Virus record (IMG/VR): IMGVR_UViG_2541047917_000005
DNA: 13,902 nucleotides
Direction: 5' to 3' (one strand)
From: a virus
Taxonomy: Duplodnaviria; Heunggongvirae; Uroviricota; Caudoviricetes
The stretch's first letter is position 1. Each line of letters opens with the position of its first letter. The notes below the pieces were generated by a model that worked only from the letters and a program-made list of their open reading frames with translations, was not told the DNA's origin and did no database searches. Positions 1 to 13,902 of the stretch are shown here, piece by piece. The position numbers and the translations under genes were made by a program.

Positions 1-1239
1 ATGAGCAGGGCAATTCATAGACTTAGCGACACTCTTTTACGAAAATTAAGCGGATCACCAACCACAAAAAGCACCTTTTTTAATGATGGTGGCAACCTTA
101 GCGTAAGGCATTCAATCAATGGCCTGTTAACCTGGTATTTCACTTACAGGGCCGGAACTGGTAGGCAGATATCACCGGAACGTCTGAGGCTGGGCAATTA
201 TCCCGATCTGAGCCTGAAAGCTGCCAGGGAAAAAGCGGCACAGTGTCGCGCCTGGCTGGCTGAGGGGAAAAATCCGCGCTATGAACTTAATCATGCTGTA
301 CAGGATGCGTTAGCCCCCGTGACGGTTAAGGAAGCGCTCACTTACTGGCTTGAATCGTACGCAAAGGAAAAGCGCACTGACTACGAATCACTGAAAAGCC
401 GGATCAATAAACACATAATCAGCCAAATTGGCGCTTTGCCGTTGGAAAAATGCGAGCTACGGCACTGGTTGGCATGTTTTGACCAGATGGCAAAGCGAAG
501 CCCAGTATCTGCCGGATTTTTGCTACAGGTATGCAAACAGGCGCTTAAGTACTGCCGAAAACGACGATACGCAATCAGCAACGTTCTTGATGATATGGTT
601 GTCGGTGATGTGGGAAAAAAAGCAGAAGTGAGCGAGCGCGTACTAACAAACAAGGAGCTTGGGGAATTACTCCGCGCCCTGGATGACAAAATATTCCCGC
701 CATACTACAGCGCCCTAATTCGCCTCCTGATTGTTTTTGGATGCCGTACCACCGAGCTAAGGCGCTCTGAGGTGCAGGAGTGGGATTTTAAAGAAATGCT
801 CTGGACAGTACCGAAGGAGCACAGCAAAACGAAGGTCGCCATATTCAGGCCAATACCGGAAAACATTTTGCCGTTCGTCACGCAGCTGGTGGAGCAGAAC
901 AGACACACGAGCTTATTGCTTGGTGAACTGAAAGGACAATCTTCGGTAGCAGAGTACGGAAGAACAGCGCACAAACGAATTAATCAAGCCCCCTGGACGT
1001 TACACGATATCCGGCACACATTTACAACCATGCTGAACGATTTAGGCGTGGATCCGCATATTGTCGAGCAGCTTACAGCCCACCAGATGCCAGGGATGCA
1101 ACGAGTCTATAACCACTCCCGCTACCTTGATGCAAAACGTGATGCTCTTAATCTATGGGTAGACCGTCTCGAGCTTCTCCAGAACAATGATGAAAAAATC
1201 GTTGTTATGACCCCGCGAATTTACCCCCAAAATTCTTGA
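1..1239 (+). CDS. int: Tyrosine recombinase / integrase, P4-type
   Basis: 412-aa ORF. N-terminal region resembles the P4-integrase arm-binding domain (LSD..DGGNLSVR..YPDLSLKAAREKA). C-terminal region has the catalytic signature HDIRHTF...VYNHSRY. ATG sits exactly at the window edge, so the true start could lie upstream. Stop TGA 1237-1239. Confidence 0.9.
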   Translation: MSRAIHRLSDTLLRKLSGSPTTKSTFFNDGGNLSVRHSINGLLTWYFTYRAGTGRQISPERLRLGNYPDLSLKAAREKAAQCRAWLAEGKNPRYELNHAVQDALAPVTVKEALTYWLESYAKEKRTDYESLKSRINKHIISQIGALPLEKCELRHWLACFDQMAKRSPVSAGFLLQVCKQALKYCRKRRYAISNVLDDMVVGDVGKKAEVSERVLTNKELGELLRALDDKIFPPYYSALIRLLIVFGCRTTELRRSEVQEWDFKEMLWTVPKEHSKTKVAIFRPIPENILPFVTQLVEQNRHTSLLLGELKGQSSVAEYGRTAHKRINQAPWTLHDIRHTFTTMLNDLGVDPHIVEQLTAHQMPGMQRVYNHSRYLDAKRDALNLWVDRLELLQNNDEKIVVMTPRIYPQNS

Positions 1240-1658: not shown

Positions 1659-1868
1659 ATGCGTGAAATAAATGAAGATCGCGTAATCCGTGAGGATGAA
1701 TGTCGTAAGTTAACTGGAGTGTGCCGCACTACACGTTACGAACTGGAGAAAAAAGGGCGCTTTCCGTCACGTCTTAATCTGGGCGGTCGTTCTGTAGGGT
1801 GGCTGCTGTCCGAGGTTATGGAATGGGTTAAAAGCCGGGATCGCATTAATTCAGGTAAGGCAGTGTAA
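1659..1868 (+). CDS. alpA: AlpA-family helix-turn-helix transcriptional regulator
   Basis: 69-aa product MREINEDRVIREDECRKLTGVCRTTRYELEKKGRFPSRLNLGGRSVGWLLSEVMEWVKSR matches the AlpA/Phage_AlpA pattern (TG.srsTiY.l...G.FP..i.LG.rsVgW...Ev.eW). The ORF-track version starts at GTG 1572, which lies inside its own Shine-Dalgarno (aagaggtg) with no spacer; ATG 1659 gives the expected AlpA length. Confidence 0.8.
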   Translation: MREINEDRVIREDECRKLTGVCRTTRYELEKKGRFPSRLNLGGRSVGWLLSEVMEWVKSRDRINSGKAV

Positions 1869-1895
1869 AGGGGAGCATATGACACATAAAACAAA

Positions 1896-1915
1896 GGCGA
1901 CCGGGGGCGGTCGCC
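1896..1915 (-). terminator. Perfect 8-bp stem hairpin, terminator-like on the minus strand
   Basis: GGCGACCG-GGGG-CGGTCGCC at 1896-1915. On the minus strand it is followed by a T-rich run (TTTGTTTTAT, reverse complement of 1886-1895). On the plus strand it is followed by AATGGGAAAAC, which is not terminator-like. Confidence 0.4.
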
Positions 1916-2237
1916 AATGGGAAAACACTAAACATAAGCCCGAACATCATAGCGATTTGCTGGCTGGTGGGCAAATCCTGAGCGGTCCTGCAATTACAGG
2001 AACTACGGCATTGTCGCGGTTAGGTTGTGCTCAACTTTTTTTCACCTCTATATCGCAAGCGCGCCGTAATAAATCGCCTTTATCGCTTCCGCAAAGATCC
2101 TTTTTCTCGAAGCATGATTTTAAGAGAAAGGCGACGACAATTAATAAAACCGCACAGAGTTTCCAATTTATAAATTTTGACATCTTTTACCCCTATGATT
2201 GTCGCCATCGTTCTTCATGTTATGACGTGATTAATGA

Positions 2238-2417
2238 TTACTCGGATTCACTGGCCTTGCGCCGCTGGCGATATTCAACTTCTCGTTTTAATGCCGCAGT
2301 AACAAATTGCCCCGTACTTTCTCCAGGCATTTTTACCGCCTCAACATTGTTCATAACTTCATGCGGAACCCTTGCCGCAACGGTTTGTGATTTTGCGTTT
2401 ACTGCTTTTGTCGCCAT
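2238..2417 (-). CDS. Putative ribbon-helix-helix (CopG/Arc-like) DNA-binding protein; 59 aa, below the ORF-track length cut-off
   Basis: Hand translation of the minus strand: MATKAVNAKSQTVAARVPHEVMNNVEAVKMPGESTGQFVTAALKREVEYRQRRKASESE. Pattern of beta-strand (QTVAARVP), helix (HEVMNNVEAV), Gly turn, helix (FVTAALKREVEY) fits an RHH fold. GAGGGG Shine-Dalgarno lies about 10 nt upstream of the ATG at 2417. Palindromic operator-like repeats sit 50-100 bp upstream of it. The plus-strand frame over the same bases gives a compositionally implausible peptide. Confidence 0.45.
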   Translation of the reverse strand: MATKAVNAKSQTVAARVPHEVMNNVEAVKMPGESTGQFVTAALKREVEYRQRRKASESE

Positions 2418-2467
2418 GTTGTGTACCCCTCATAAAAAACAAATGCAGTATGCAGGAAAAAAAATAA

Positions 2468-2520
2468 GTGTTCAACACTTGACGTGTTCAACACCTGAGT
2501 TTAAATTGGTGTTCAACACC
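2468..2520. promoter_or_regulatory. Three perfect copies of the 11-bp palindrome GTGTTCAACAC overlapping a sigma70-like promoter (operator array)
   Basis: Exact copies at 2468-2478, 2484-2494 and 2509-2519; each is a dyad (GTGTT-C-AACAC). TTGACG (2479-2484) and TAAATT (2502-2507) are spaced 17 bp, so two copies bracket the -35 and the third lies just downstream of the -10. The region is divergent between the minus-strand RHH ORF and the plus-strand Icd-like start at 2617. Confidence 0.5.
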
Positions 2521-2616
2521 TTGTTGGCGCAAGGTGCAGAAACGACGAAACCCGGCAGTGAGCTAACACTAACCGGGCTTCTAACCACCAACGATAGAAA
2601 GCGTATCGAGGTAGCT

Positions 2617-3231
2617 ATGTTAAATCATACCACACACCCGCAAGGGCGGGATTCGCACAACCTGAATAAATACATCTGGCGTTTTATCGCCCTGAGCACG
2701 GCACAACCGCGCGTGATTACCATCGAGGCCACCAGCGAACAGGAAGCACGCCAGAAAAACCAGTTGATCGCCACTGCCAGCCAGGGCTATGATTTACCCG
2801 CACCAGCAAAATCTGGTGCCGGGATTGGCGTCCTGGAAATGTCAAAGGCGATATATGACGCGCCAGCGTCTTTTTTATCGTCCGCATTCGCTCACATCAA
2901 AGTTATGGTGGGCTGGGCGGGGGCTTCTTCGGAAGCGCCGGTTCCCTTTGACGCCGGTTACGCCAACCCCGTTCAGTCCACCGCCAGCGAAATTGGCGTT
3001 TCCTGCGGTGGAAATTCTTCACTGTCAAAGGAGGCTGCCAACATGGCTACTATCCCTACCCTCGTACATTCTCAAACTGCCTTTATCTGGCGCTTTATCA
3101 TCTTTGGCGCGTCAGAATCTCAAATCGTCCACGTAACCGCCTGGACGGAAGGCGAAGCGCGTAACCGTTGCCCGTCCGGTTGTGTCGCTGTATTCGCCGC
3201 CCGTATTCGTCAGGGGGTGAGTCATGCATAA
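2617..3231 (+). CDS. Icd-like (host cell division inhibitor-like) protein with two tandem Icd-like domains in one frame
   Basis: ATG 2617 preceded by GAGG (2608-2611). Two related segments: NKYIWRFIALSTAQPRVITIEATSEQEARQ and QTAFIWRFIIFGASESQIVHVTAWTEGEARN..AVFAARIRQGV, recognised from memory as the Icd-like family of P4-like islands. No stop codon separates the two copies. The stop-free frame actually extends from 1879, but that upstream part is judged non-coding. Confidence 0.5.
   Translation: MLNHTTHPQGRDSHNLNKYIWRFIALSTAQPRVITIEATSEQEARQKNQLIATASQGYDLPAPAKSGAGIGVLEMSKAIYDAPASFLSSAFAHIKVMVGWAGASSEAPVPFDAGYANPVQSTASEIGVSCGGNSSLSKEAANMATIPTLVHSQTAFIWRFIIFGASESQIVHVTAWTEGEARNRCPSGCVAVFAARIRQGVSHA
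3043..3231 (+). CDS. Second Icd-like copy as a possible independent cistron (alternative to the 2617 start)
   Basis: Near-consensus Shine-Dalgarno AAGGAGG (3028-3034) 8 nt before ATG 3043. 62-aa product MATIPTLVHSQTAFIWRFIIFGASESQIVHVTAWTEGEARNRCPSGCVAVFAARIRQGVSHA has a typical Icd-like size. Confidence 0.45.
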   Translation: MATIPTLVHSQTAFIWRFIIFGASESQIVHVTAWTEGEARNRCPSGCVAVFAARIRQGVSHA

Positions 3232-3456: not shown

Positions 3457-3756
3457 ATGAAAAATAAAAATTCTGGCTTTACCGCCAGCGGCCCTGCTCG
3501 TCCTGAATTTATGAACGGCGATATTTACCGCGATAAATATGGCGGCATGGTAACGATTAAAGGCGTGGCAGAACGGCGCATCACCTACGGTCGTGAAGGC
3601 TACGAATATGATTGCGTGATGCCTGTTTATCAGTTTCGGCGTGATTTTTCTCTGGTACAGGCAGCGCCCCGCAGTAAACCAACCAGCAGGGAGAAAGCAC
3701 GCGCCAATATTCAGGAAATAAAAAAGATGCTTAACGTATTCAGGGGTAAAAAATGA
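3457..3756 (+). CDS. Hypothetical protein (99 aa), translationally coupled to the primase/helicase
   Basis: ATG 3457 with GGAGA upstream. Its stop TGA overlaps the ATG of the next gene (ATGA at 3753-3756). No family recognised by eye. Confidence 0.55.
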   Translation: MKNKNSGFTASGPARPEFMNGDIYRDKYGGMVTIKGVAERRITYGREGYEYDCVMPVYQFRRDFSLVQAAPRSKPTSREKARANIQEIKKMLNVFRGKK

Positions 3757-5501
3757 AACTGGCACCGAACGTAAAAAAACAGCCACGCGGAATAAAACAC
3801 AAAGACACAGAGGTAATTATTTTCGCGGGTAGTGATGCCTGGTCGCACGCGAAACAATGGCAGGAGCAGGATGGCCCCGCATCCGGCGATAATGTGCCGC
3901 CTGTGTGGCTTGGGCCAAATCAGCTTGCCGAACTTGATGCACTGAAAATTGTTCCGGATGGAAAAAAACGCGTAAGGCTGTACCAGGCCGGAGAACTGGA
4001 TTTGGTGGAGACCAAAAAGATTGGTCAGAAGCTGGCGGCGGCAGATATTCAGGACGCAAATTTTTACCCCGAAGGAATGCACGTCCAGAAGTGTGAAAAC
4101 TGGCGGCGCTATCTGAATGCTGAGCGTGAAAATATTGCCGCAGGGCTTACCATGCCGGAGCAGAAAAATACGCAACTGGCACAAATGGCAGACAGTGAGC
4201 GCGCACAGATGCTTGCTGGTCGATTTGATGGCGTTTGTGTGCATCCGGAAAGTGAAATCGTTCACGTATGGCGCGGCGGGGTATGGTGTCCGGTCAGCAC
4301 AATGGAACTTAGCCGCGAAATGGTGGCGATCTATTCAGAGCACAGGGCCACTTTCAGCAAGCGCGTAATCAATAACGCCGTGGAAGCGTTAAAAGTTATT
4401 GCCGAACCAATGGGCGAGCCGTCCGGCGATTTGCTGCCGTTCGCCAATGGTGCGCTTGACCTGAAAACGGGGGAATTTTCCCCGCACACGCCGGAGAACT
4501 GGATCACCACGAACAACGGCATTGAGTACACGCCACCAGCACCAGGGGAGAACATCCGCGATAACGCGCCAAACTTTCATAAATGGCTTGAGCACGCAGC
4601 CGGAAAAGACTCGCGCAAGATGATGCGTATATGTGCCGCGCTGTACATGATTATGGCGAACCGGTACGACTGGCAGATGTTTATTGAGGCCACCGGAGAC
4701 GGCGGGAGCGGTAAAAGTACATTCACACACATCGCCAGCCTTCTGGCAGGGAAACAGAACACGGTGAGCGCGGAGATGACATCGCTTGATGATGCTGGTG
4801 GGCGTGCGCAGGTTGTCGGGAGTCGTCTTATCGTCCTGGCAGACCAGCCGAAATATACAGGCGAAGGCACGGGCATCAAGAAAATCACGGGCGGCGACCC
4901 CGTGGAAATCAACCCGAAATATGAAAAGCGTTTCACTACGGTAATCAGGGCGGTGGTGCTGGCGACCAATAACAACCCGATGATATTCACCGAACGGGCC
5001 GGAGGCGTGTCACGTCGTCGGGTTATTTTCCGCTTCGACAATATCGTAAGCGAGGCAGAAAAAGACAGGGAGCTACCGGAAAAGATTGCGGCTGAAATCC
5101 CTGTCATTATCCGCCGCTTGCTGGCGAACTTTGCCGACCCTGAAAAGGCACGGGCTTTACTCATTGAACAGCGAGACGGTGATGAAGCACTGGCGATAAA
5201 GCAGCAGACGGATCCGGTTATTGAGTTTTGCCAGTTCCTTAACTTTCTGGAAGAAGCACGCGGCCTGATGATGGGCGGCGGCGGTGACTCTTCCAGGTAC
5301 ACGACCAGAAACAGCCTTTACCGCGTCTATCTGGCGTTTATGGCGTATGCAGGCAGGAGCAAACCGCTAAACGTAAATGACTTTGGCAAGGCTATGAAGC
5401 CAGCCGCGAAAGTTTACGGACATGAATATATTACGCGGAAAGTTAAGGGAGTAACGCAGACTAACGCAATAACAACAGACGATTGCGACGCGTTTTTATA
5501 A
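3753..5501 (+). CDS. DNA primase/helicase of the phage/plasmid primase P4 family (D5_N-like region plus SF3 P-loop NTPase)
   Basis: 582 aa. Walker A GDGGSGKST encoded at 4695-4721. Upstream region LLPFANGALDLKTGEFSPHTPENWITTNNGIEYTP is typical of the P4-alpha / D5 N-terminal-like domain. AGGGG Shine-Dalgarno 6 nt upstream of the ATG. The N-terminal ~200 aa (VIIFAGSDAWSH...) could be toprim-like but is not confidently assigned. Confidence 0.9.
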   Translation: MKLAPNVKKQPRGIKHKDTEVIIFAGSDAWSHAKQWQEQDGPASGDNVPPVWLGPNQLAELDALKIVPDGKKRVRLYQAGELDLVETKKIGQKLAAADIQDANFYPEGMHVQKCENWRRYLNAERENIAAGLTMPEQKNTQLAQMADSERAQMLAGRFDGVCVHPESEIVHVWRGGVWCPVSTMELSREMVAIYSEHRATFSKRVINNAVEALKVIAEPMGEPSGDLLPFANGALDLKTGEFSPHTPENWITTNNGIEYTPPAPGENIRDNAPNFHKWLEHAAGKDSRKMMRICAALYMIMANRYDWQMFIEATGDGGSGKSTFTHIASLLAGKQNTVSAEMTSLDDAGGRAQVVGSRLIVLADQPKYTGEGTGIKKITGGDPVEINPKYEKRFTTVIRAVVLATNNNPMIFTERAGGVSRRRVIFRFDNIVSEAEKDRELPEKIAAEIPVIIRRLLANFADPEKARALLIEQRDGDEALAIKQQTDPVIEFCQFLNFLEEARGLMMGGGGDSSRYTTRNSLYRVYLAFMAYAGRSKPLNVNDFGKAMKPAAKVYGHEYITRKVKGVTQTNAITTDDCDAFL

Positions 5502-6723: not shown

Positions 6724-6974
6724 CCACAGAGGAAATTAAACGACACCGCGAATTATTCGGCCTTGAACATCCGGCCCACACGACAACGGAGCGTTATCGC
6801 CAGCACCTGGCGGCGGGGGCGATATTCTGGGTTGATCATCATGGTTTTTTACGCAGCACGCTTTCCGGTGAAATTCTGGCGGCTGGTCCTGAACAGATTG
6901 ATGCGCTCATCGCATATCTGGAAAAGGTGAAGCCCCGCACAGTGCAATCAGTACCACCGGAAGACGTTAATTAA
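6714..6974 (+). CDS. Hypothetical protein (86 aa)
   Basis: ATG 6714 preceded by AAGGGGGA; overlaps the PerC-like stop. Followed directly by a strong terminator. No family recognised by eye. Confidence 0.5.
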   Translation: MPVTTEEIKRHRELFGLEHPAHTTTERYRQHLAAGAIFWVDHHGFLRSTLSGEILAAGPEQIDALIAYLEKVKPRTVQSVPPEDVN

Positions 6975-6981
6975 TGGCCCA

Positions 6982-7007
6982 GCCCTGGTTTAACCAGGGC
7001 TTTTTTT
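6982..7007 (+). terminator. Rho-independent terminator closing the early/replication module
   Basis: GCCCTGG-TTTAA-CCAGGGC stem-loop (6982-7000) followed by TTTTTTT (7001-7007), 8 nt after the TAA at 6972-6974. Confidence 0.7.
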
Positions 7008-7129
7008 GTCAGCTTTTGTAAATTATTTGTGCGTGGTTGTTCGTGGTTGTTCAGCGGCATGGCTGGCTTATTTTATCAGGCCCGAACCGTGGTTATTCTC
7101 GCCACTGTTGCCAGGACGCTGGGACCATT

Positions 7130-7168
7130 TTCCCGCCTGTTAATCTCATCAGCGTTAACAGGCGGGAA
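7130..7168. promoter_or_regulatory. Perfect 14-bp inverted repeat about 90 bp upstream of the capsid gene
   Basis: TTCCCGCCTGTTAA (7130-7143), 11-nt spacer, TTAACAGGCGGGAA (7155-7168). Not followed by a T-run. A tandem 10-bp direct repeat CGTGGTTGTT x2 lies at 7032-7051 in the same leader. Confidence 0.3.
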
Positions 7169-7257
7169 GCCTGCATCGGTGTGCATTTCTTTTTGTTCTC
7201 GTACCGTGAGTCTTGCCGCGTCCTGGTGTTTTCCTCTTTGCATCAGGACTTTTTTTT

Positions 7258-8427
7258 ATGCCGAGAATTATCGAATTGCGCCAGCAGAAAACCGCCATCA
7301 AAAATCAGATGCGCGACATGCTGGAGAACGCGGAAAAAGAAAACCGCAGCCTTAACGACGCCGAGGGCGCAAAATTTGACGAATTACGCGCTAAAGCTGA
7401 ATCCCTCGATAAAGACATTTCCCGCCTTGAAGCCGTTGCCGACGAAGAGCGCAGCAAGCCAGGTAAAGCCAGCCAGACCACTGACCCCGCAGAACTTCGC
7501 AACTACATCGTAACGGGTGACGTTCGCTCATTATCCACCACCACCAACGGCGGCAAGGACGGTGGTTATACCGTTATCCCTGAGCTTGATCGCGAGGTTA
7601 TGCGGTTACTGAGTGATGAAAGCGTCATGCGAATGATTGCGACGGTGAAAACGGCGAAATCAAACGAATACCAGAAACTGGTTTCCACAGGTGGCGCAAC
7701 GGTGGGGCGTGGCACTGAGGGCAACAAGCGAACCGAAACAGAAACCCCGAAAGTTGAGCGCGTAAGCATCAAACTTAACCCGATCTATGCCTACCCGAAA
7801 ACCACGCAGGAAATCCTGGATTTTTCAGAAGTGGATGTGCTGGGCTGGTTATCGTCTGAAATCGCCGACACGTTCGCCACGACCGAAGAAGATGATTTTG
7901 TAAATGGTGACGGTACTGGCAAGCCGAAGGGTTTCCTGAATTACACCCGTGATACCAACAACGACAAAGCCCGCGCCTTTGGCACCATTGAAAAAATGGT
8001 TACAACAACCGACGCCATTACAGCGGACGAACTGATCGACATCCTCTACAAGCTGAAAGCGAAATACCGTAAGAACGCCGTATGGGTGATGAACTCGAGT
8101 ACAGCGGCAGCATTGCAGAAGCTGAAAAACCAGAGCGGTGATTACGTATGGCGTGACAGCCTCAAAGAGGGCGCACCTGACACATTGCTGGGCCGTCCTG
8201 TTTATTACCTGGAAAGTATGCCGGACATCGGCAAAGGCAAAACGCCGCTGGCTGTCGGTGACTTTAAGCGCGGTTATTTCATCGTTGACCATGAAACGGG
8301 GATCCGTACCCGACCGGACAACATTACAGAGCCGGGTTTCTACAAGGTACACACGGACAAATACATCGGCGGCGGGGTTGTTGACTCCCGCGCGATAAAA
8401 GTCCTCGAGATGAAAAACGGCGGTTAA
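7258..8427 (+). CDS. Major capsid protein, HK97 family
   Basis: About 389 aa from ATG 7258. N-terminal coiled-coil delta-domain-like segment (ELRQQKTAIKNQMRDMLENAEKENRSLNDAEGAKFDELRAKAESLDKDISRLE) followed by an HK97-fold-like body (…GDFKRGYFIVDHETGIRTRPDNITEPGFYKVHTDKYIGGGVVDSRAIKVLEMK). The track start at 7213 is a TTG extension; no clear Shine-Dalgarno for either start. Confidence 0.9.
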   Translation: MPRIIELRQQKTAIKNQMRDMLENAEKENRSLNDAEGAKFDELRAKAESLDKDISRLEAVADEERSKPGKASQTTDPAELRNYIVTGDVRSLSTTTNGGKDGGYTVIPELDREVMRLLSDESVMRMIATVKTAKSNEYQKLVSTGGATVGRGTEGNKRTETETPKVERVSIKLNPIYAYPKTTQEILDFSEVDVLGWLSSEIADTFATTEEDDFVNGDGTGKPKGFLNYTRDTNNDKARAFGTIEKMVTTTDAITADELIDILYKLKAKYRKNAVWVMNSSTAAALQKLKNQSGDYVWRDSLKEGAPDTLLGRPVYYLESMPDIGKGKTPLAVGDFKRGYFIVDHETGIRTRPDNITEPGFYKVHTDKYIGGGVVDSRAIKVLEMKNGG

Positions 8428-8435
8428 CAGAAAAA

Positions 8436-8462
8436 GGGGCTAAAAAGCCCCTTTGGTGTTTT
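8436..8462 (+). terminator. Hairpin plus T-rich tract just after the capsid gene (possible partial terminator)
   Basis: GGGGCT-AAAA-AGCCCC (8436-8451) followed by TTTGGTGTTTT (8452-8462), 8 nt after the capsid stop codon. Confidence 0.45.
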
Positions 8463-8477
8463 ATGGGTGAAAAAAAT

Positions 8478-9038
8478 ATGAAAAAGAGCATGGAAATCCG
8501 GTCATCAGAAATCACCACCAGCGGAGCCAGTACGCTGACGGGTTACGTTGTTCGCTGGAATAACCTTTCTGATCTGCTATGGGGTGAGTTTTACGAAAAA
8601 TTCCAGCGGGGGGCGTTCAGTGAGTGGCTGGCGGCGGGTAATGACGTTCGCGGCCTGTATGAGCATGACCACAGCATGTTACTGGGGCGCACCCGTTCCG
8701 GCACGCTGAAACTGGAAGAGGACGACACAGGGTTACGCTTTGAACTGACCCCACCGGATACCAGCACAGGGCGGGACGTTATCGAACTGGTTAAACGTGG
8801 TGATATATCCGGCATGAGCTTTGGCTTTCGTTCCCGTAAGGATGTATGGGATACCACAACAGATCCATGCGTGCGCACCGTGCTGGTGGCGGAACTGTAC
8901 GAAATTACCGTTACATCCGTACCGGCTTACCCTGATTCCGGCGTGGATCTGGCCCGCCGTTCCCTGTATGAGCAGCACCCCGAAAAAATGCCACGCGCGG
9001 ATAATCGCCGCTGGTGGGCGGATTTAGCGGGGGTGTGA
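8478..9038 (+). CDS. Prohead maturation protease, HK97 family (S78/U35-like)
   Basis: Motifs GYVVRWNNLSD, YEHDHSMLLGRT, GLRFELTPPDT, ISGMSFGF are consistent with HK97 gp4-type proteases. Start uncertain between ATG 8463, 8478 and 8490; 8478 has GGTGA 7 nt upstream. Stop TGA 9036-9038. Confidence 0.85.
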   Translation: MKKSMEIRSSEITTSGASTLTGYVVRWNNLSDLLWGEFYEKFQRGAFSEWLAAGNDVRGLYEHDHSMLLGRTRSGTLKLEEDDTGLRFELTPPDTSTGRDVIELVKRGDISGMSFGFRSRKDVWDTTTDPCVRTVLVAELYEITVTSVPAYPDSGVDLARRSLYEQHPEKMPRADNRRWWADLAGV

Positions 9039-9039
9039 T

Positions 9040-10254
9040 ATGTGGCCTTTCAGACGAAAACAAGAGCATCGCAGCCTTACGCTGGATGAATTTATGGCGC
9101 TGGCTGGCACATCGAACACGGGGGCGGGTGAGTACGTATCATCGGGGACAGCGGAATCACTCCCCGCCGTCATGAACGCCGTCACGGTCATCTCTGAGGC
9201 GGTGGCTACTATGCCATGCTACCTGTACCTGGTACGCAATGAGAAGGGGAAGGAGGCCCGCGAGTGGCTTGATTCTCATCCGGTCGATCATATCCTCAAC
9301 GAGCGCCCGAACGCGTGGCAGACGCCCTATCAGTTTAAGCGAATGATGGTCCGCCACTGCCTGTTAAACGGTAATGCTTATGCGGTGATTCAGTGGGGGC
9401 GTGATGGTTTTCCGGTGGCTTTGCACCCTTACCCGCCGCAGTCGGTGAATGTTGAGCAGACAGGGGAACATAACTGGCGTTACCGCATCACTGACGCTTA
9501 CAGCGGAAACACCCGCAACTATTTACCGTGGGAGGTTCTCCACCTTCGTTACTCCACGGATGACGGCTTTATGGGGCGCTCACCTGTGACCATCTGCCGC
9601 GAATCGCTGGGGCTTGGGCTGGCCCAACAGCGCCACGGCGCGAGCGTGATGCGTGATGGCATGATGGCAGCAGGGGTTATCACGTCAGGCGAATGGCTGG
9701 ACGGCGTGAAGGGCAAACAGGCATTAGCCGCACTGGAACGCTACAAAGGAGCCAGAAACGCCGGAAAAACGCCCATTCTTGAAGGGGGTATGAGCTATCA
9801 GCAGCTTGGCATGAGTAACCAGGATGCTGAATGGCTGGCCTCCCGTCGCTTCACCATTGAAGACATCGCCCGAATGTTCAACGTCTCGCCGATTTTTCTG
9901 CAGGAATACAGCAACAGCACCTACAGCAATTTCAGCGAGGCAAGCCGCGCGTTTCTGACCATGACGATGCGCCCGTGGCTGGCGAACTTTGAGCAGCAGA
10001 TAAAAAATGCTTTGCTGGTGGCCTCGCCTGTACCTGGTATCCGGTATCAGGTGGAGTTTGACAGCGCGGACCTGTTACGGGCCACACCTGGCGAACGCTT
10101 TGCCACCTATGAACGCGGCATCAAGTCCGGCGTTATGTGCCCGAACGAAGCCCGCGAACGTGAGGGATTATCGCCGCGTGATGGTGGCGATGAGTTCAGC
10201 CAGGCCTGGAAACAGGAGATCGAAGTAAAGGACGATAAAGAGGGCAAATCATGA
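9040..10254 (+). CDS. Portal protein, HK97 family
   Basis: 404 aa with portal-like core (…NGNAYAVIQWGRDG…WEVLHLRY…MRPWLANFEQQI…). ATG 9040 is 1 nt after the protease stop, preceded by GGGGGTG. Confidence 0.9.
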   Translation: MWPFRRKQEHRSLTLDEFMALAGTSNTGAGEYVSSGTAESLPAVMNAVTVISEAVATMPCYLYLVRNEKGKEAREWLDSHPVDHILNERPNAWQTPYQFKRMMVRHCLLNGNAYAVIQWGRDGFPVALHPYPPQSVNVEQTGEHNWRYRITDAYSGNTRNYLPWEVLHLRYSTDDGFMGRSPVTICRESLGLGLAQQRHGASVMRDGMMAAGVITSGEWLDGVKGKQALAALERYKGARNAGKTPILEGGMSYQQLGMSNQDAEWLASRRFTIEDIARMFNVSPIFLQEYSNSTYSNFSEASRAFLTMTMRPWLANFEQQIKNALLVASPVPGIRYQVEFDSADLLRATPGERFATYERGIKSGVMCPNEAREREGLSPRDGGDEFSQAWKQEIEVKDDKEGKS

Positions 10255-10589
10255 GAGCGGGGAGCATGAGGGATCGCATTGTCATCATGAGCGCGAAACT
10301 TTCCCGCCTCCCTTCCGGTGCAATGAAAAGCACATGGGAGGATGTTGCCACCGTATGGGCGGAGGTGAAAGGGATCAGCGGACGGGAACGCATGACCGCA
10401 GGTGCAGAAACGGCACAGGCAACCGTAAGAGTCTGGATCCGTTTTCGTGGGGATGTTACGGCATCCAGCCGGATACGGGTACTCACGGGGGCTTATTCCG
10501 GCAATGAGCTTGATATTGTTGGCCCCCCCGTTCCCGACGGTAAAAGGACTCGTCTGGAAATTCTTTGTAAAACAGGTGCGCCACGATGA
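10251..10589 (+). CDS. Head closure / head-tail adaptor protein
   Basis: 112 aa. Pattern R..I.....SGAM...WEDVATVWAEV...SGRE...AGAE.A....V.IR.R.DV.....R....G.....L.I.G...P..DG.R.RLEILC matches the phage head-closure (head_tail_join) family. ATG overlaps the portal stop (ATGA); AGAGGG upstream. Confidence 0.7.
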   Translation: MRAGSMRDRIVIMSAKLSRLPSGAMKSTWEDVATVWAEVKGISGRERMTAGAETAQATVRVWIRFRGDVTASSRIRVLTGAYSGNELDIVGPPVPDGKRTRLEILCKTGAPR

Positions 10590-10882
10590 CAGCAGAATTA
10601 ATCACCCTGGAAGAAGTGAAACTCCATTGCCGCATTGATGGCAATGAGGAAGACCAGTTAATCAGCGGATACATCGCCGCCGCGCTTGAGGTGTGCCAGA
10701 AACACATCGGCAGGCGCTTTGATGACGGGCTGGAGTTCACGCCAGCCATAAAGATTGGCTGCATGATGTACGTGTCGCAACTGTACGAATACAGGGCCAC
10801 GGTCGGGGATGCAGACACAAAAGAAATCCCGCTGGCTGTAGGGATGCTCTGGTCGGTTTATCGTGATGTGGGGGTGTACTGA
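10586..10882 (+). CDS. gp6-like head-tail connector protein
   Basis: 98 aa. N-terminal LITLEEVKLHCRIDGNEEDQLISGYIAAA is typical of the phage gp6-like connector family. ATG overlaps the upstream stop. Confidence 0.7.
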   Translation: MTAELITLEEVKLHCRIDGNEEDQLISGYIAAALEVCQKHIGRRFDDGLEFTPAIKIGCMMYVSQLYEYRATVGDADTKEIPLAVGMLWSVYRDVGVY

Positions 10883-11322
10883 TGCCGTGGCAACCATTAA
10901 GGCGATGCACTGAGCCGGGCTGTAATAAGCGCGTGAAGTCCGGCAAGTGTGAAGAGCACAGGCGGGCTGCATGGCGTGCAGAGGATGCCAGACGGGGACA
11001 CCGCCGCGCACGTGGGTATTCCCGACAGTGGGACAAATACCGCGCCATGTACCTGAAAAAAAATCCGTTATGTGTGCGTTGTCTGGCTGAGGGTATTTAT
11101 ACGCCAGCCTTTGTGGTGGATCACATTATCCCCATCAATGGTGGCGGTGATGTTCTCTTCTGGCCTGAGTGGAATCACCAGGCATTGTGCCAGACGTGCC
11201 ACAACCGTAAGACGACGCGGGAAGATCCCGCCACGAAAGCAAACCGTAAAGCGGGCATGTATCGCGAGCAGGAAGAACGGGCGGCACACCGTAACGACTG
11301 GATGTATGGCGATGATGACTGA
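10882..11322 (+). CDS. HNH endonuclease (packaging-associated)
   Basis: 146 aa. Cys-rich N-terminus (CTEPGCN...GKCEEH) and an HNH core (VVDHIIPINGGGD...NHQALCQTCHNRKT). Lies immediately upstream of terS/terL, as in HK97-like cos packaging modules. Confidence 0.9.
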   Translation: MPWQPLRRCTEPGCNKRVKSGKCEEHRRAAWRAEDARRGHRRARGYSRQWDKYRAMYLKKNPLCVRCLAEGIYTPAFVVDHIIPINGGGDVLFWPEWNHQALCQTCHNRKTTREDPATKANRKAGMYREQEERAAHRNDWMYGDDD

Positions 11323-11491
11323 ACAGGAACAAAACAGGCTGATTCGTGGACTGATAAGGCAGCATGACGCATGGAAGACACAGGAGACAGGGCACAAAGC
11401 CAACAGGACAGGGCGCACAGAACGCACCACCGCGAAGCGATTAACCGACCGTGACCGCGAGGTCATGGAATGTTTTCGCAATCGCTGGTGA
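11306..11491 (+). CDS. Possible small ORF (61 aa) overlapping the HNH 3' end
   Basis: ATG 11306 in the +1 frame relative to HNH; product MAMMTEQEQNRLIRGLIRQHDAWKTQETGHKANRTGRTERTTAKRLTDRDREVMECFRNRW. No convincing Shine-Dalgarno. May be translated or may simply mark the packaging-site region. Confidence 0.2.
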   Translation: MAMMTEQEQNRLIRGLIRQHDAWKTQETGHKANRTGRTERTTAKRLTDRDREVMECFRNRW

Positions 11492-11610
11492 GGCCGTCAG
11501 AGGGGGTGGGGGTGGTTTTCAGGACGAAACCGTCCCTGCCGGACACCGACCGCCTCCTCAAATTTTTATGCACGGGAATTTTTTGAAAAATAATCTGACG
11601 AAAAATAAGC

Positions 11611-11967
11611 ATGGCAAGACCACCGAAAGCCCCCGCCTACCTGGATGACATCGCCGTGAAGCAGTGGCGGGAAAAATCGCGGCAGCTTGCGGAACGGGGA
11701 GACCTGACCCCCGCCGACTGGAGCAATCTGGAACTGTATTGTGTCAACTACTCCATTTACCGGAAAGCCGTCGCAGACCTTGCGGCGCGCGGGTTCAGCA
11801 TTGTTAACAGTCAGGGCGGCGAGAGCAGAAACCCCGCATTAAGCGCAAAATCCGACGCTGAAAGAGTGATGATAAAAATGGCCTCCTTGCTCGGTTTTGA
11901 CCCGATAAGCCGCCGTAAAAATCCACCGGAAACAGAAGAAGAGGACGAGCTTGACCGCCTGGAATAA
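11611..11967 (+). CDS. terS: Terminase small subunit (P27-family-like)
   Basis: 118 aa (MARPPKAPAYLDDIAVKQWREKSRQLAERGDLTPADWSNLELYCVNYSIYRKA…) resembles P27-family small terminases. Directly upstream of, and overlapping, terL. Confidence 0.85.
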   Translation: MARPPKAPAYLDDIAVKQWREKSRQLAERGDLTPADWSNLELYCVNYSIYRKAVADLAARGFSIVNSQGGESRNPALSAKSDAERVMIKMASLLGFDPISRRKNPPETEEEDELDRLE

Positions 11968-13612
11968 GTACGCAGAAGACGTAAAAACGGGCAAAATTCC
12001 GGCCTGTAAACGGCTGAAACAGGCCGTTAAACGGTACTTTTCGGACCTTGAAAGCCCCCTTTACACGTTCGATCGTGAGGTTGTGGAGCGGTTTATTGCC
12101 TTTTCCAGGGTGTGCGCGCACGTAAAAGGGCCGATGCGTGGCAGACCCATTGAGCTGGAGCCGTGGCAGCAGTTCGCCTTTGCGTGCATCCTCGGCTTTA
12201 AGGTTAAGGCCACCGGACGGCGCAAATACACGAGCGCCTTTATCGAAGTGCCGCGCAAAAATGCGAAATCCACGACCGCCGCGATTCTGGCTAACTGGTT
12301 TTTGATTATGGAGAACGGTCAGCAGGATATCTACACCGCAGCGGTGAGCCGTGACCAGGCGCGGATCGTCTTTGATGATGCGCGTCAGATGTGCCTTTTA
12401 TCCCGACCGTTACGCAGGCGGGTGAATATTCAGGCGCATAAGGTGATACACCCGAAAACCAACAGCCTGTTAAAGCCACTGGCAGCAAAAGCGGCAACCA
12501 TTGAGGGGACAAACCCGAGTCTTGCCATTGTGGATGAATATCACCTGCACCCAGACAACGGGGTTTATTCCGCACTTGATATGGGGATGGGGGCGCGTCC
12601 GGAGGGGCTGTTATTTGCCATCACCACATCGGGGAGCAACGTTGTTTCAGCCTGTAAACAACACTATGACTATTGCTGTCAGATACTGGATGGTGAAGAG
12701 ATGAACGAATCCATGTTCGTTCTGATTTACGAGCTGGATGATGAAAGCGAGGTTGACGATCCGGCGATGTGGATAAAGGCGAATCCAAATATCGATGTTT
12801 CCGTCGATCGTGAAAAACTGGCCTCAACCATCCAGAAAGCGCGGGGTATTCCGTCGCAGTGGGTGGAAATGCTCACCAAGCGATTCAATATCTGGTGTCA
12901 GGGGGCTACGCCGTGGATGGGTAACGGTGCATGGGCGGAGTGCGCCGGAACGTTCACGGAGGAAGATTTACACGGCCAGGAGTGTTACGCGGGGCTGGAT
13001 TTATCATCCACAAGCGATATTTCCAGCGTGTGCTATGCCTTTCCGGTCGGTAAAACCATTATGCTGGTTTCCCGTCATTATCTGCCGGAGTTCCAGCTAC
13101 AGAACCCCGCCAATAAAAACCGCGCTGTCTATCGTCAGTGGGCTAAAGCGGGCTGGATACGCACAACGCCTGGCGACTGCATTGATTACGACCGGATCAG
13201 AGATGACATCATGCAGGACGCGGAGAATTTCAATATCAGGCTGGTGGGTTTCGATACATGGAACGCCACGCACCTGAGGACGCAGCTACAGGGCGCGGGA
13301 TTTGAGGTGGAGCCGTTCCCGCAAACATACCTTCGTTTCAGTCCGGCGGCGAAATCGTTCGAAGTTTTTGTTAACCGGAAGGTGATTGTGCATCGTGGTG
13401 ATCCGGTGCTGGCCTGGTCAATGAGTAATGTTGTGATGCAGAGTGACGCGAACGCCAATATCAAGCCGAACAAGAAAAAATCATCCAACAAGATAGACCC
13501 GAGCGTTGCGGCGCTGATGGCGTTTGGCACATTCCAGGCAGAGCATGAAGATTTTGCCTTTGATATAAGCGACAGCCACAAAGAGCGGCTTGCGGCGTTT
13601 GATGGGGTATGA
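11951..13612 (+). CDS. terL: Terminase large subunit
   Basis: 553 aa. Typical TerL N-terminus (WNKYAEDVKTGKIPACKRLKQAVKRYFSDLE), P-loop region (EVPRKNAKSTTAA), Walker-B-like LAIVDEYH and a C-terminal nuclease-like region. Apparent TTG start at 11951 with GAGGA 5 nt upstream; 17-nt overlap with terS. Confidence 0.9.
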   Translation: MTAWNKYAEDVKTGKIPACKRLKQAVKRYFSDLESPLYTFDREVVERFIAFSRVCAHVKGPMRGRPIELEPWQQFAFACILGFKVKATGRRKYTSAFIEVPRKNAKSTTAAILANWFLIMENGQQDIYTAAVSRDQARIVFDDARQMCLLSRPLRRRVNIQAHKVIHPKTNSLLKPLAAKAATIEGTNPSLAIVDEYHLHPDNGVYSALDMGMGARPEGLLFAITTSGSNVVSACKQHYDYCCQILDGEEMNESMFVLIYELDDESEVDDPAMWIKANPNIDVSVDREKLASTIQKARGIPSQWVEMLTKRFNIWCQGATPWMGNGAWAECAGTFTEEDLHGQECYAGLDLSSTSDISSVCYAFPVGKTIMLVSRHYLPEFQLQNPANKNRAVYRQWAKAGWIRTTPGDCIDYDRIRDDIMQDAENFNIRLVGFDTWNATHLRTQLQGAGFEVEPFPQTYLRFSPAAKSFEVFVNRKVIVHRGDPVLAWSMSNVVMQSDANANIKPNKKKSSNKIDPSVAALMAFGTFQAEHEDFAFDISDSHKERLAAFDGV

Positions 13613-13902
13613 CGAGAATGAGCGAAACCGAACTACTAAAAATAATCCGCCGCGTTACCGGAATCAGCCCGGCAGCAGGCAAACGTGAGGCCACGCAGCC
13701 GGAAACTGTCACCGCTGAAAATTACGCGCGTGTGGTGGCTGAGGTGATGCGCCGTGATGGTATAGAACTTAATGGCGTGGATATGCGCAACATACGAACC
13801 AGAGTTCTTGAGTTGCTGGCCTACCGTCGCCGCGTGGAGATGTATCGGGAGAAGGAGAAAATAACGTACCACTGGAAGAAGCCGGAGCGGTTGCGGCGGT
13901 AA
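13609..13902 (+). CDS. Hypothetical protein (97 aa), stop at the last base of the window
   Basis: ATG 13609 overlaps the terL stop (ATGA); alternative ATG at 13618. Charged, helical-looking; no family recognised by eye. Confidence 0.45.
   Translation: MTRMSETELLKIIRRVTGISPAAGKREATQPETVTAENYARVVAEVMRRDGIELNGVDMRNIRTRVLELLAYRRRVEMYREKEKITYHWKKPERLRR

Follow-up and report, generated by a model that had tools for sequence, protein, structure and literature searches.

A probable complete cf-PICI at the cspD/clpS site of Escherichia coli with the capsid-first packaging module published for its family

Introduction

EcCIEDL933 is the experimentally characterised prototype of the cf-PICIs. Alqurainy et al. 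established that it is a functional satellite and that each of its packaging genes is required for transfer, and published work on this island describes a T=4 capsid of 240 MCP copies and DNA with cos ends. Helper induction, T=4 capsids that hold only the island, and the use of helper tails have been shown for EcCIEDL933 and a few others only, and the connector/adaptor genes of cf-PICIs were reported to set tail choice. According to Alqurainy et al., proteobacterial cf-PICIs share one order of head and packaging genes, and one Firmicute cf-PICI group retains portal-protease-capsid. Here we compare with these systems a stretch of 13,902 nt, referred to as the window, in which an initial annotation had noticed an unusual order of the head and packaging genes.

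Results

The window most probably represents, with a probability of about 0.93, a complete E. coli cf-PICI of the EcCIEDL933 clade, inserted at the cspD/clpS site and with a gene order that is the published hallmark of these elements. Its DNA is 100% identical to several independent public E. coli assemblies, where the island lies between cspD and clpS and measures ~14.9 kb between 17-bp att-like repeats. In the assemblies with identical sequence, int is found 38 nt from the repeat adjoining cspD, and alpA is annotated as a 69-aa gene. Pfam families identify a PICI backbone composed of int, alpA, a D5 primase, ssb, and perC (Table 1). The features that define a cf-PICI are found together: an integrase at one end with AlpA and a primase/replication module (PF00589, PF05930, PF08706/PF19263); its own HK97-type MCP, prohead protease, portal, and two head-tail connectors, and self-encoded HNH, TerS, and TerL (Pfam, PHROGs); the order capsid-protease-portal-connectors, then hnh-terS-terL; a size of about one third of a phage genome; and packaging proteins 51-100% identical to those of EcCIEDL933, clearly apart from phage homologues (<=37%). 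All the + strand ORFs of the window were accounted for, and none is a tail or lysis gene. The terS-terL-portal-protease-MCP-Ad1-Hc1-tail order of an HK97-like phage is absent, as are its tail genes.

Table 1 Features of the window, with positions counted from its first nucleotide
Feature	Position	Strand	Evidence or remark
int	1..1239	+	PF00589 + PF13356
AlpA-family regulator, PICI inducer gene	1659..1868	+	PF05930, 2.1e-16
D5_N/DUF5906 primase-helicase, replication module	3753..5501	+	PF08706, PF19263, PF03288
Intrinsic-terminator-like hairpin + T7, closes upstream module	6981..7008	+	9-bp stem, 6 GC pairs
Conserved motif TTGTAAATTATTTGT, start of packaging-operon leader	7016..7030	+	unique exact match in window
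Structured 5' leader	7031..7257	+	covariation, folding
Tandem repeats CGTGGTTGTTC in leader	7032-7052	+	
Leader hairpin	7111-7122	+	
Leader alternative pairing	7115-7121 with 7216-7222	+	
Leader 14-bp hairpin	7130-7143/7155-7168	+	
Terminator-like hairpin + U8, directly 5' of capsid ATG	7220-7249	+	
HK97-fold MCP, first gene of operon	7258..8427	+	PF05065, 2.8e-72
GC-rich hairpin + T-run, directly 3' of capsid gene	8433..8454	+	
S78 prohead maturation protease	8463..9038	+	PF04586, 1.2e-47
Portal	9040..10254	+	PF04860, 8.2e-92
Hc1 head closure/completion, HK97 gp7 type, tail-facing connector	10251..10589	+	PF05521, 1.4e-23; phrog_25
Ad1 head-tail adaptor, HK97 gp6 type	10586..10882	+	PF05135, 1e-10; phrog_40, 8e-34
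HNH endonuclease, terminase partner	10882..11322	+	PF01844, 1.9e-09; phrog_144, 8e-45
Conserved 61-aa ORF between HNH and terS	11306..11491	+	annotated in E. coli ZH063 and EDL933
G-rich motif GGGGGTGGGGGTGGTTTTCAGGAC, candidate cos element	11502..11525	+	kept in 23/68 HNH-terS spacers
Small terminase TerS, P27 family	11611..11967	+	PF05119, 1.3e-23
Large terminase TerL	11951..13612	+	PF03354 + PF20441; phrog_9, 1e-178
Conserved hypothetical protein coupled to terL	13609..13902	+	phrog_1561

The order proposed in the initial annotation, capsid-protease-portal-closure-connector-HNH-terS-terL on one strand, is real: all eight genes lie on the + strand (7258-13612), and Pfam and PHROGs uphold all eight families. 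ATGA or TGATG overlaps are present at the portal/Hc1, Hc1/Ad1, Ad1/HNH, and terL/next-ORF junctions. The 61-aa ORF had been overlooked; its protein is 31-100% identical across 31 loci, and, as 1786 is the capsid gene, it is probably the counterpart of the EcCIEDL933 "hypothetical gene 1792".

By reading the chromosome of E. coli O157:H7 EDL933 directly, we placed EcCIEDL933 at 1680329-1694760 of NZ_CP008957.1. Order and content are identical to those of the window, from int/alpA through MCP-protease-portal-Hc1-Ad1-HNH-small ORF-terS-terL-hypothetical, and the packaging modules are collinear with 85.5% DNA identity over 7003-13902, which bears out the synteny with described cf-PICIs suggested as a check. 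TerS is 100% identical, portal and TerL 97%, and the protease 95%, whereas identity falls to 74% for Ad1 and for the ORF after terL, 69% for MCP, and only 51% for Hc1. Because MCP and Hc1 are so much more diverged, capsid size and helper or tail specificity could differ between the two islands. They also differ in the replication protein (D5_N primase in the window, DUF927 in EcCIEDL933), in the region after alpA, and in the integration site, which is roxA/phoQ for EcCIEDL933.

The order MCP-protease-portal-Hc1-Ad1-HNH-terS-terL is kept in homologous islands of other genomes, in 53/53 loci with all eight genes from seven gammaproteobacterial families, and the 27 partial loci are likewise collinear with the window. 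Independent complete chromosomes, including those of E. coli ZH063 and EDL933, display it as well. Exceptions include two Symbiopectobacterium copies with an Hc1-like ORF after HNH. True phages reach at most 37% identity to the island MCP and terL and retain the canonical order; identity thus jumps from <=37% for any phage to 60-82% among satellites. The closest "phage" records are satellite-sized or include a satellite. Among them, vB_KppS-Ant (LR881103) and Pasteurella Pmp7 and Pmp8 have the window order, with MCP 60-71% and terL 68-82% identical, and are filed as phages at 10.7-16.5 kb though they lack tail modules; they differ from the window in their hosts and accessory genes. For Pmp8 (15.3 kb), an independent annotation gives the same order.

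Direct inspection of HK97, HK106, and SfIV confirmed the canonical order to which the locus had been compared, terS-terL-portal-protease-MCP-Ad1-Hc1-tail. HK97 and HK106 (Hendrixvirinae) share with the window the protein families, the HNH-cos-terS-terL junction, an HNH-dependent cos terminase, and a terminator after the capsid gene, but they run portal-protease-MCP-Ad1-Hc1 and then tail, whereas the island runs MCP-protease-portal-Hc1-Ad1 without tail genes. The true rearrangements are therefore two local swaps with the strand unchanged, from portal-protease-MCP to MCP-protease-portal and from Ad1-Hc1 to Hc1-Ad1. The position of HNH-terS-terL is canonical and reflects circular permutation only, since in the cos-to-cos form terS-terL stand at the left and HNH at the right, as in HK97, where HNH is the last gene and terS the first. 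That more than a simple circular permutation is involved thus holds for capsid-protease-portal and for Hc1-Ad1 and fails for the terminase. Fixation of both swaps would predate the spread of the clade through Enterobacterales, Pasteurellaceae, and Orbaceae.

A cos site probably lies between HNH and terS, in the spacer that contains the G-rich motif. In the particle-derived record LR881103, the first nucleotide lies 22 nt upstream of terS, and the sequence runs out beyond HNH, exactly on this motif. As LR881103 lacks ~72 nt found in the spacer of the window, and as 42 nt separate the end of record PQ569648 from the motif, these ends are suggestive for cos, nothing firmer.

Upstream of the capsid gene, we observed a structured leader of ~240 nt that is conserved, shows covariation, and includes terminator-like hairpins; this observation may be new. 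In ~30 related loci, 204-252 nt separate the TTGTAAATTATTTGT motif from the capsid ATG downstream of it, and in the Xenorhabdus group this distance is 116-156 nt. Across 30 leader sequences, 89.7% of cells were paired, compared with 31-44% in slid controls, and 0/500 shuffles were as good; the folding z-score was -3.9, and in the main helix the G-U versus A-C counts do not discriminate the strand. Compared with known RNAs in Rfam, the leader gave no match at gathering score and noise only at E up to 10, and belongs to no Rfam family. A blastn search of the leader against the phage collection gave no match, and a sigma-70 consensus scan of the + strand over 6974-7258 found no promoter. Most of 69 distinct loci keep the hairpin downstream of the capsid gene, although its stem sequences have changed; because HK97 and HK106 have such a terminator with the canonical order, it appears to be ancestral.

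Discussion

The function of the E. coli island can be predicted wholly by homology to EcCIEDL933. A helper phage would turn on alpA, leading to excision and replication of the island, and the one-strand packaging operon would then be expressed. MCP, protease, and portal would form small T=4 proheads; HNH, TerS, and TerL would cleave the putative cos and package one island genome; and Ad1 and Hc1 would seal the head and attach tails taken from the helper. Classical Gram-negative PICIs (EcCICFT073 type) resemble the window in their int-alpA-primase backbone, AlpA activator, size of ~10-15 kb, and helper dependence, but, unlike it, they lack genes for capsid, portal, and terminase and divert the packaging of the helper.

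The same genes could also be read as those of a decayed HK97-like prophage in which tail, lysis, and lysogeny genes have been lost and rearrangements have shuffled the head genes. All the head and packaging proteins are indeed of HK97-type families, and a deletion between the connectors and HNH would leave the terminase genes where they are found. For this reason, the terminase placement after the connectors, taken in the initial annotation as a sign of a satellite, is not diagnostic: circularised HK97-type genomes normally have the junction HNH-(cos)-terS-terL. However, the ORFs are all intact and tightly coupled, order and content recur in the 53 complete loci of seven families, the backbone is of the PICI int/alpA/primase type rather than lambdoid, and no phage exceeds 37% identity. 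In addition, ~14.9 kb fits the T=4 capsid of EcCIEDL933, a near relative whose function as a satellite rests on genetics. Decay is thus very improbable and already largely refuted, and the view of a dedicated satellite rather than a degraded prophage agrees almost word for word with the published description of cf-PICIs. An assembly artefact fusing two modules, named at the outset as what might overturn the observed order, is negligible as an explanation. We found no support for it in the window itself, although PQ569648 (106.5 kb) resembles a fusion of a phage contig and a cf-PICI; the identical independent assemblies, the collinear finished chromosomes of ZH063 and EDL933, and the gene overlaps that cross the junctions of the packaging module all speak against it.

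The unusual order is therefore that of the published cf-PICI architecture, with the E. coli island as a typical representative of the family. Why the capsid gene comes first is a separate matter, and an adaptation of expression, with a regulated leader before this gene and a leaky terminator after it, is possible but doubtful. With the capsid gene first and a leaky terminator next, one promoter would give capsid protein in abundance but only small amounts of portal, connector, and terminase. The conserved leader with its terminator-like hairpins and the conserved hairpin and T-run after MCP are consistent with this idea, as is the succession of genes, which begins with the most abundant product (240 MCP copies) and proceeds to the catalytic ones. 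On the other hand, HK97 and HK106 share the post-capsid terminator despite their canonical order, and the Firmicute group of Alqurainy et al. has portal-protease-capsid.

Tentatively, the ~240-nt leader might be an undescribed cis-regulatory gate of the capsid-first operon, made of the TTGTAAATTATTTGT box, element-specific tandem repeats, covarying helices, and a switch. In such a switch, the 5' arm of the start-proximal hairpin would have two alternative partners, its own 3' arm and an upstream hairpin, and in the window the start-proximal hairpin would both act as a terminator and occlude the ribosome-binding site. If so, the satellite could time and dose capsid production on a helper or AlpA signal, transcription would start just after the TTGTAAAT box, and there would be a functional reason for the capsid gene having moved to the front. 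Control of capsid-operon expression is not addressed in the cf-PICI papers cited here, a literature search combining AlpA, antitermination, and PICI gave no match on it, and the leader is a concrete candidate for it. As P. aeruginosa AlpA is a Q-like antiterminator (PMC7969949, PMC9371919), we considered whether the AlpA of the window might likewise read through the leader terminators, an idea that we set aside as weakly founded. The protein had no detectable sequence match to PDB chains labelled as P. aeruginosa AlpA or as an antitermination complex, its sole PDB match being an unrelated "AlpA family" entry, 8c3t.

For annotation, the order MCP-protease-portal-Hc1-Ad1-HNH-terS-terL on one strand behind int/alpA/primase points to a tail-stealing satellite and not to a defective prophage or a small "phage", a rule that applies to several database satellites misfiled as phages. 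The leader and the relatives without Hc1 could matter more than the gene order itself. Hc1 is missing from eight related loci, possibly a new observation, which suggests that in some satellites the head-closure protein, too, is stolen.

Head and packaging module

The unusual order of head and packaging genes noted in the initial annotation is real, and its satellite reading was correct: the same order is found in EcCIEDL933, the prototype capsid-forming phage-inducible chromosomal island (cf-PICI), which we located directly in the chromosome of E. coli O157:H7 EDL933. Profile searches against Pfam and PHROGs bore out all the gene families previously assigned (see table), and the ORF map of the whole window forms one plus-strand array. 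Start and stop codons overlap at the portal/Hc1, Hc1/Ad1, Ad1/HNH, and terL/next ORF junctions, so that the head-packaging block reads as one operon whose sole break is the 289 nt between HNH and terS. This break contains a conserved 61-aa ORF that had not been listed.

Features of the operon leader and of the head and packaging genes in the window
Feature	Position	Strand	Evidence or detail
Terminator of upstream module	6981-7008		
Invariant box	7016-7030		TTGTAAATTATTTGT
Tandem 11-nt repeats	leader, 5′ of capsid ATG		sequence varies between elements
Local hairpin	7111-7122		
Perfect hairpin	7130-7168		14 bp
Terminator-like hairpin	directly before capsid ATG		10 bp, followed by eight U
Major capsid protein (MCP)	7258-8427	+	PF05065, 2.8e-72 (Pfam)
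S78 prohead protease	8463-9038	+	1.2e-47 (Pfam)
Portal	9040-10254	+	8.2e-92 (Pfam)
Head closure Hc1	10251-10589	+	PF05521; phrog_25
gp6-like adaptor Ad1	10586-10882	+	PF05135; phrog_40
HNH	10882-11322	+	PF01844
61-aa ORF	11306-11491		
Candidate cos site	11502-11525		GGGGGTGGGGGTGGTTTTCAGGAC
P27-type terS	11611-11967	+	PF05119
terL	11951-13612	+	PF03354 and PF20441

Window positions 7003-13902 are collinear with the EcCIEDL933 packaging module (85.5% DNA identity), with gene order exactly the same. Neither this order nor the satellite interpretation is new: Alqurainy et al. (bioRxiv 10.1101/2022.09.08.507074) described the "unusual genetic organisation" of EcCIEDL933, concluded that cf-PICIs form deep lineages as opposed to decayed prophages, and showed with mutants that every packaging-module gene is required for transfer, the mutant in hypothetical gene 1792 being severely reduced. 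A follow-up reported a T=4 capsid of 47.5 nm, cohesive cos ends on the packaged DNA, and adaptor/connector genes that determine which helper tails can be used (10.1101/2025.02.11.637232). Only the operon leader and the Hc1-less relatives described below are possibly new.

At the protein level, the module is a mosaic, with TerS (100% identical to EcCIEDL933), TerL (97%), portal (97%), and protease (95%) strongly conserved, followed by HNH (84%), Ad1 (74%), MCP (69%), and Hc1 (51%). These identities imply that capsid and connector genes would have been exchanged as alleles among cf-PICI lineages. As Hc1 faces the tail and is the most diverged protein, the window island and EcCIEDL933 probably differ in tail specificity. 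A Shigella flexneri island (L018) has the same mosaic pattern. By homology with the steps shown for EcCIEDL933, a helper phage would induce alpA, and the island would excise and then replicate; MCP, protease, and portal would assemble T=4 proheads, HNH, TerS, and TerL would cleave cos and package one genome unit, and Ad1 and Hc1 would finish the head and attach it to helper tails.

Gene order in phages and related islands

The canonical order given in the initial annotation holds in HK97, its relative HK106, and SfIV, which we verified directly to run terS-terL-portal-protease-MCP-Ad1-Hc1-tail. The HK97 genome opens with terS on the left and closes with HNH on the right, so that HNH-cos-terS-terL is the usual junction once the DNA is circular or concatemeric. 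The linear record LR881103 (vB_KppS-Ant), derived from particles, opens 22 nt ahead of terS, and its other end lies just past HNH and the small ORF, on a G-rich motif. The window carries this motif about 90 nt before terS, and it recurs in 23 of 68 HNH-terS spacers; it is a candidate cos site. These HK97 and LR881103 ends make the terminase position relative to int a mere circular permutation around cos. The central earlier point, that the inverted capsid-protease-portal order is not a simple circular permutation, stands: portal-protease-MCP has become MCP-protease-portal, and Ad1-Hc1 has likewise become Hc1-Ad1, with the strand unchanged, which is beyond permutation or inversion. A bona fide lambdoid prophage of EDL933 (L084, 9209-17565) is arranged HNH-terS-terL-capsid (645 aa)-hypothetical-portal (frameshifted)-connector-closure; capsid before portal is therefore not restricted to satellites, being found in one phage head-module type.

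Scanning one genome for each species, we recovered 80 loci with capsids 61-73% identical to that of the window, spanning Enterobacteriaceae, Erwiniaceae, Yersiniaceae, Pectobacteriaceae, Morganellaceae, Pasteurellaceae, and Orbaceae. The window order is kept on one strand in all 53 loci having all eight genes, and the remaining 27 are collinear fragments, none rearranged by tblastn. Profile searching, being more sensitive, revealed two exceptions of detail. Eight loci lack Hc1 (L002, L010, L013, L014, L017, L038, L039, and L064); in these, Ad1 starts at most 70 nt past the portal gene, and no Hc1-like ORF was found within 10 kb to either side of the capsid gene. Two Symbiopectobacterium copies (L047:8164 and L048:13670) instead have an Hc1-like ORF between HNH and terS. 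Together, these cases indicate that the Hc1 slot is labile, and some satellites may take Hc1 too from the helper.

Among the collected phage sequences, capsid and terL were best matched by satellite-sized records (vB_KppS-Ant, 16.5 kb, and the Pasteurella "phages" Pmp7 and Pmp8) or a contig ending in a cf-PICI; beyond these, real phages showed at most 37% identity and the canonical order. GenBank "phage" records that are or contain cf-PICIs include LR881103.1, in which the ORF after terL is labelled tape measure protein, OR544138/OR544139, and PQ569648.1 (L092; 90.6-106.5 kb). The latter, Klebsiella phage P12620-1 (106.5 kb), carries a complete cf-PICI at its end in terS-to-HNH orientation and looks like a chimeric assembly.

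Leader of the operon

DNA homology with EcCIEDL933 begins at 7003, ahead of the capsid ATG. Across 30 aligned leaders, pairing in the proposed helices is 89.7-89.9%, compared with 23-44% in slid controls; none of 500 shuffles did as well, and double changes occur at 10/10 pairs of the main helix. The start-proximal hairpin also has an alternative pairing partner: its 5′ arm complements the upstream hairpin, and does so in at least four distinct sequence versions. In the window, the 3′ arm of the start-proximal hairpin contains the AGGA ribosome-binding site. On the basis of these sequence features, 6975-7257 is a conserved, structured candidate regulatory leader, with a hypothetical mechanism. 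Searches of Rfam and of phage sequences gave no match to it, published cf-PICI accounts (Alqurainy et al.; 10.1101/2025.02.11.637232) do not mention promoters or terminators, and a literature search combining AlpA, antitermination, and PICI returned no match. A hairpin and T-run directly 3′ of the capsid gene is also conserved; it is shared with HK97 and HK106 and thus ancestral.

Island backbone and integration site

Within the EcCIEDL933 clade, the window island is unremarkable. Its head genes are preceded by the Gram-negative PICI backbone of tyrosine integrase, AlpA regulator, DUF4222 protein, D5-type primase-helicase, SSB, and PerC, and genes for tail and lysis are absent. Sequences 100% identical to the window occur in several public E. 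coli assemblies, whose flanks (L097, L087) place the integration site between cspD and clpS. One copy of the 17-bp direct repeat AATGGTGTAGTTAATTT precedes int by 38 nt, and the other follows the last ORF at a distance of 949 nt, giving an element size of ~14.9 kb. Beyond the right end of the window, accessory DNA continues for about 950 nt and includes an ORF of 52-60 aa.

The region 1879-3231, mechanically listed as a 450-aa ORF that is spurious, is a P1/P4-type immunity cassette within the island, with an isrK-like sRNA (2800-2876, 75 bits), a C4 antisense RNA (2901-2988, 82 bits), and an Ash/Icd-like ORF (2617-3231) that comes after these RNAs. A small YlcI/YnfO-like gene is found on the minus strand at 2238-2417.
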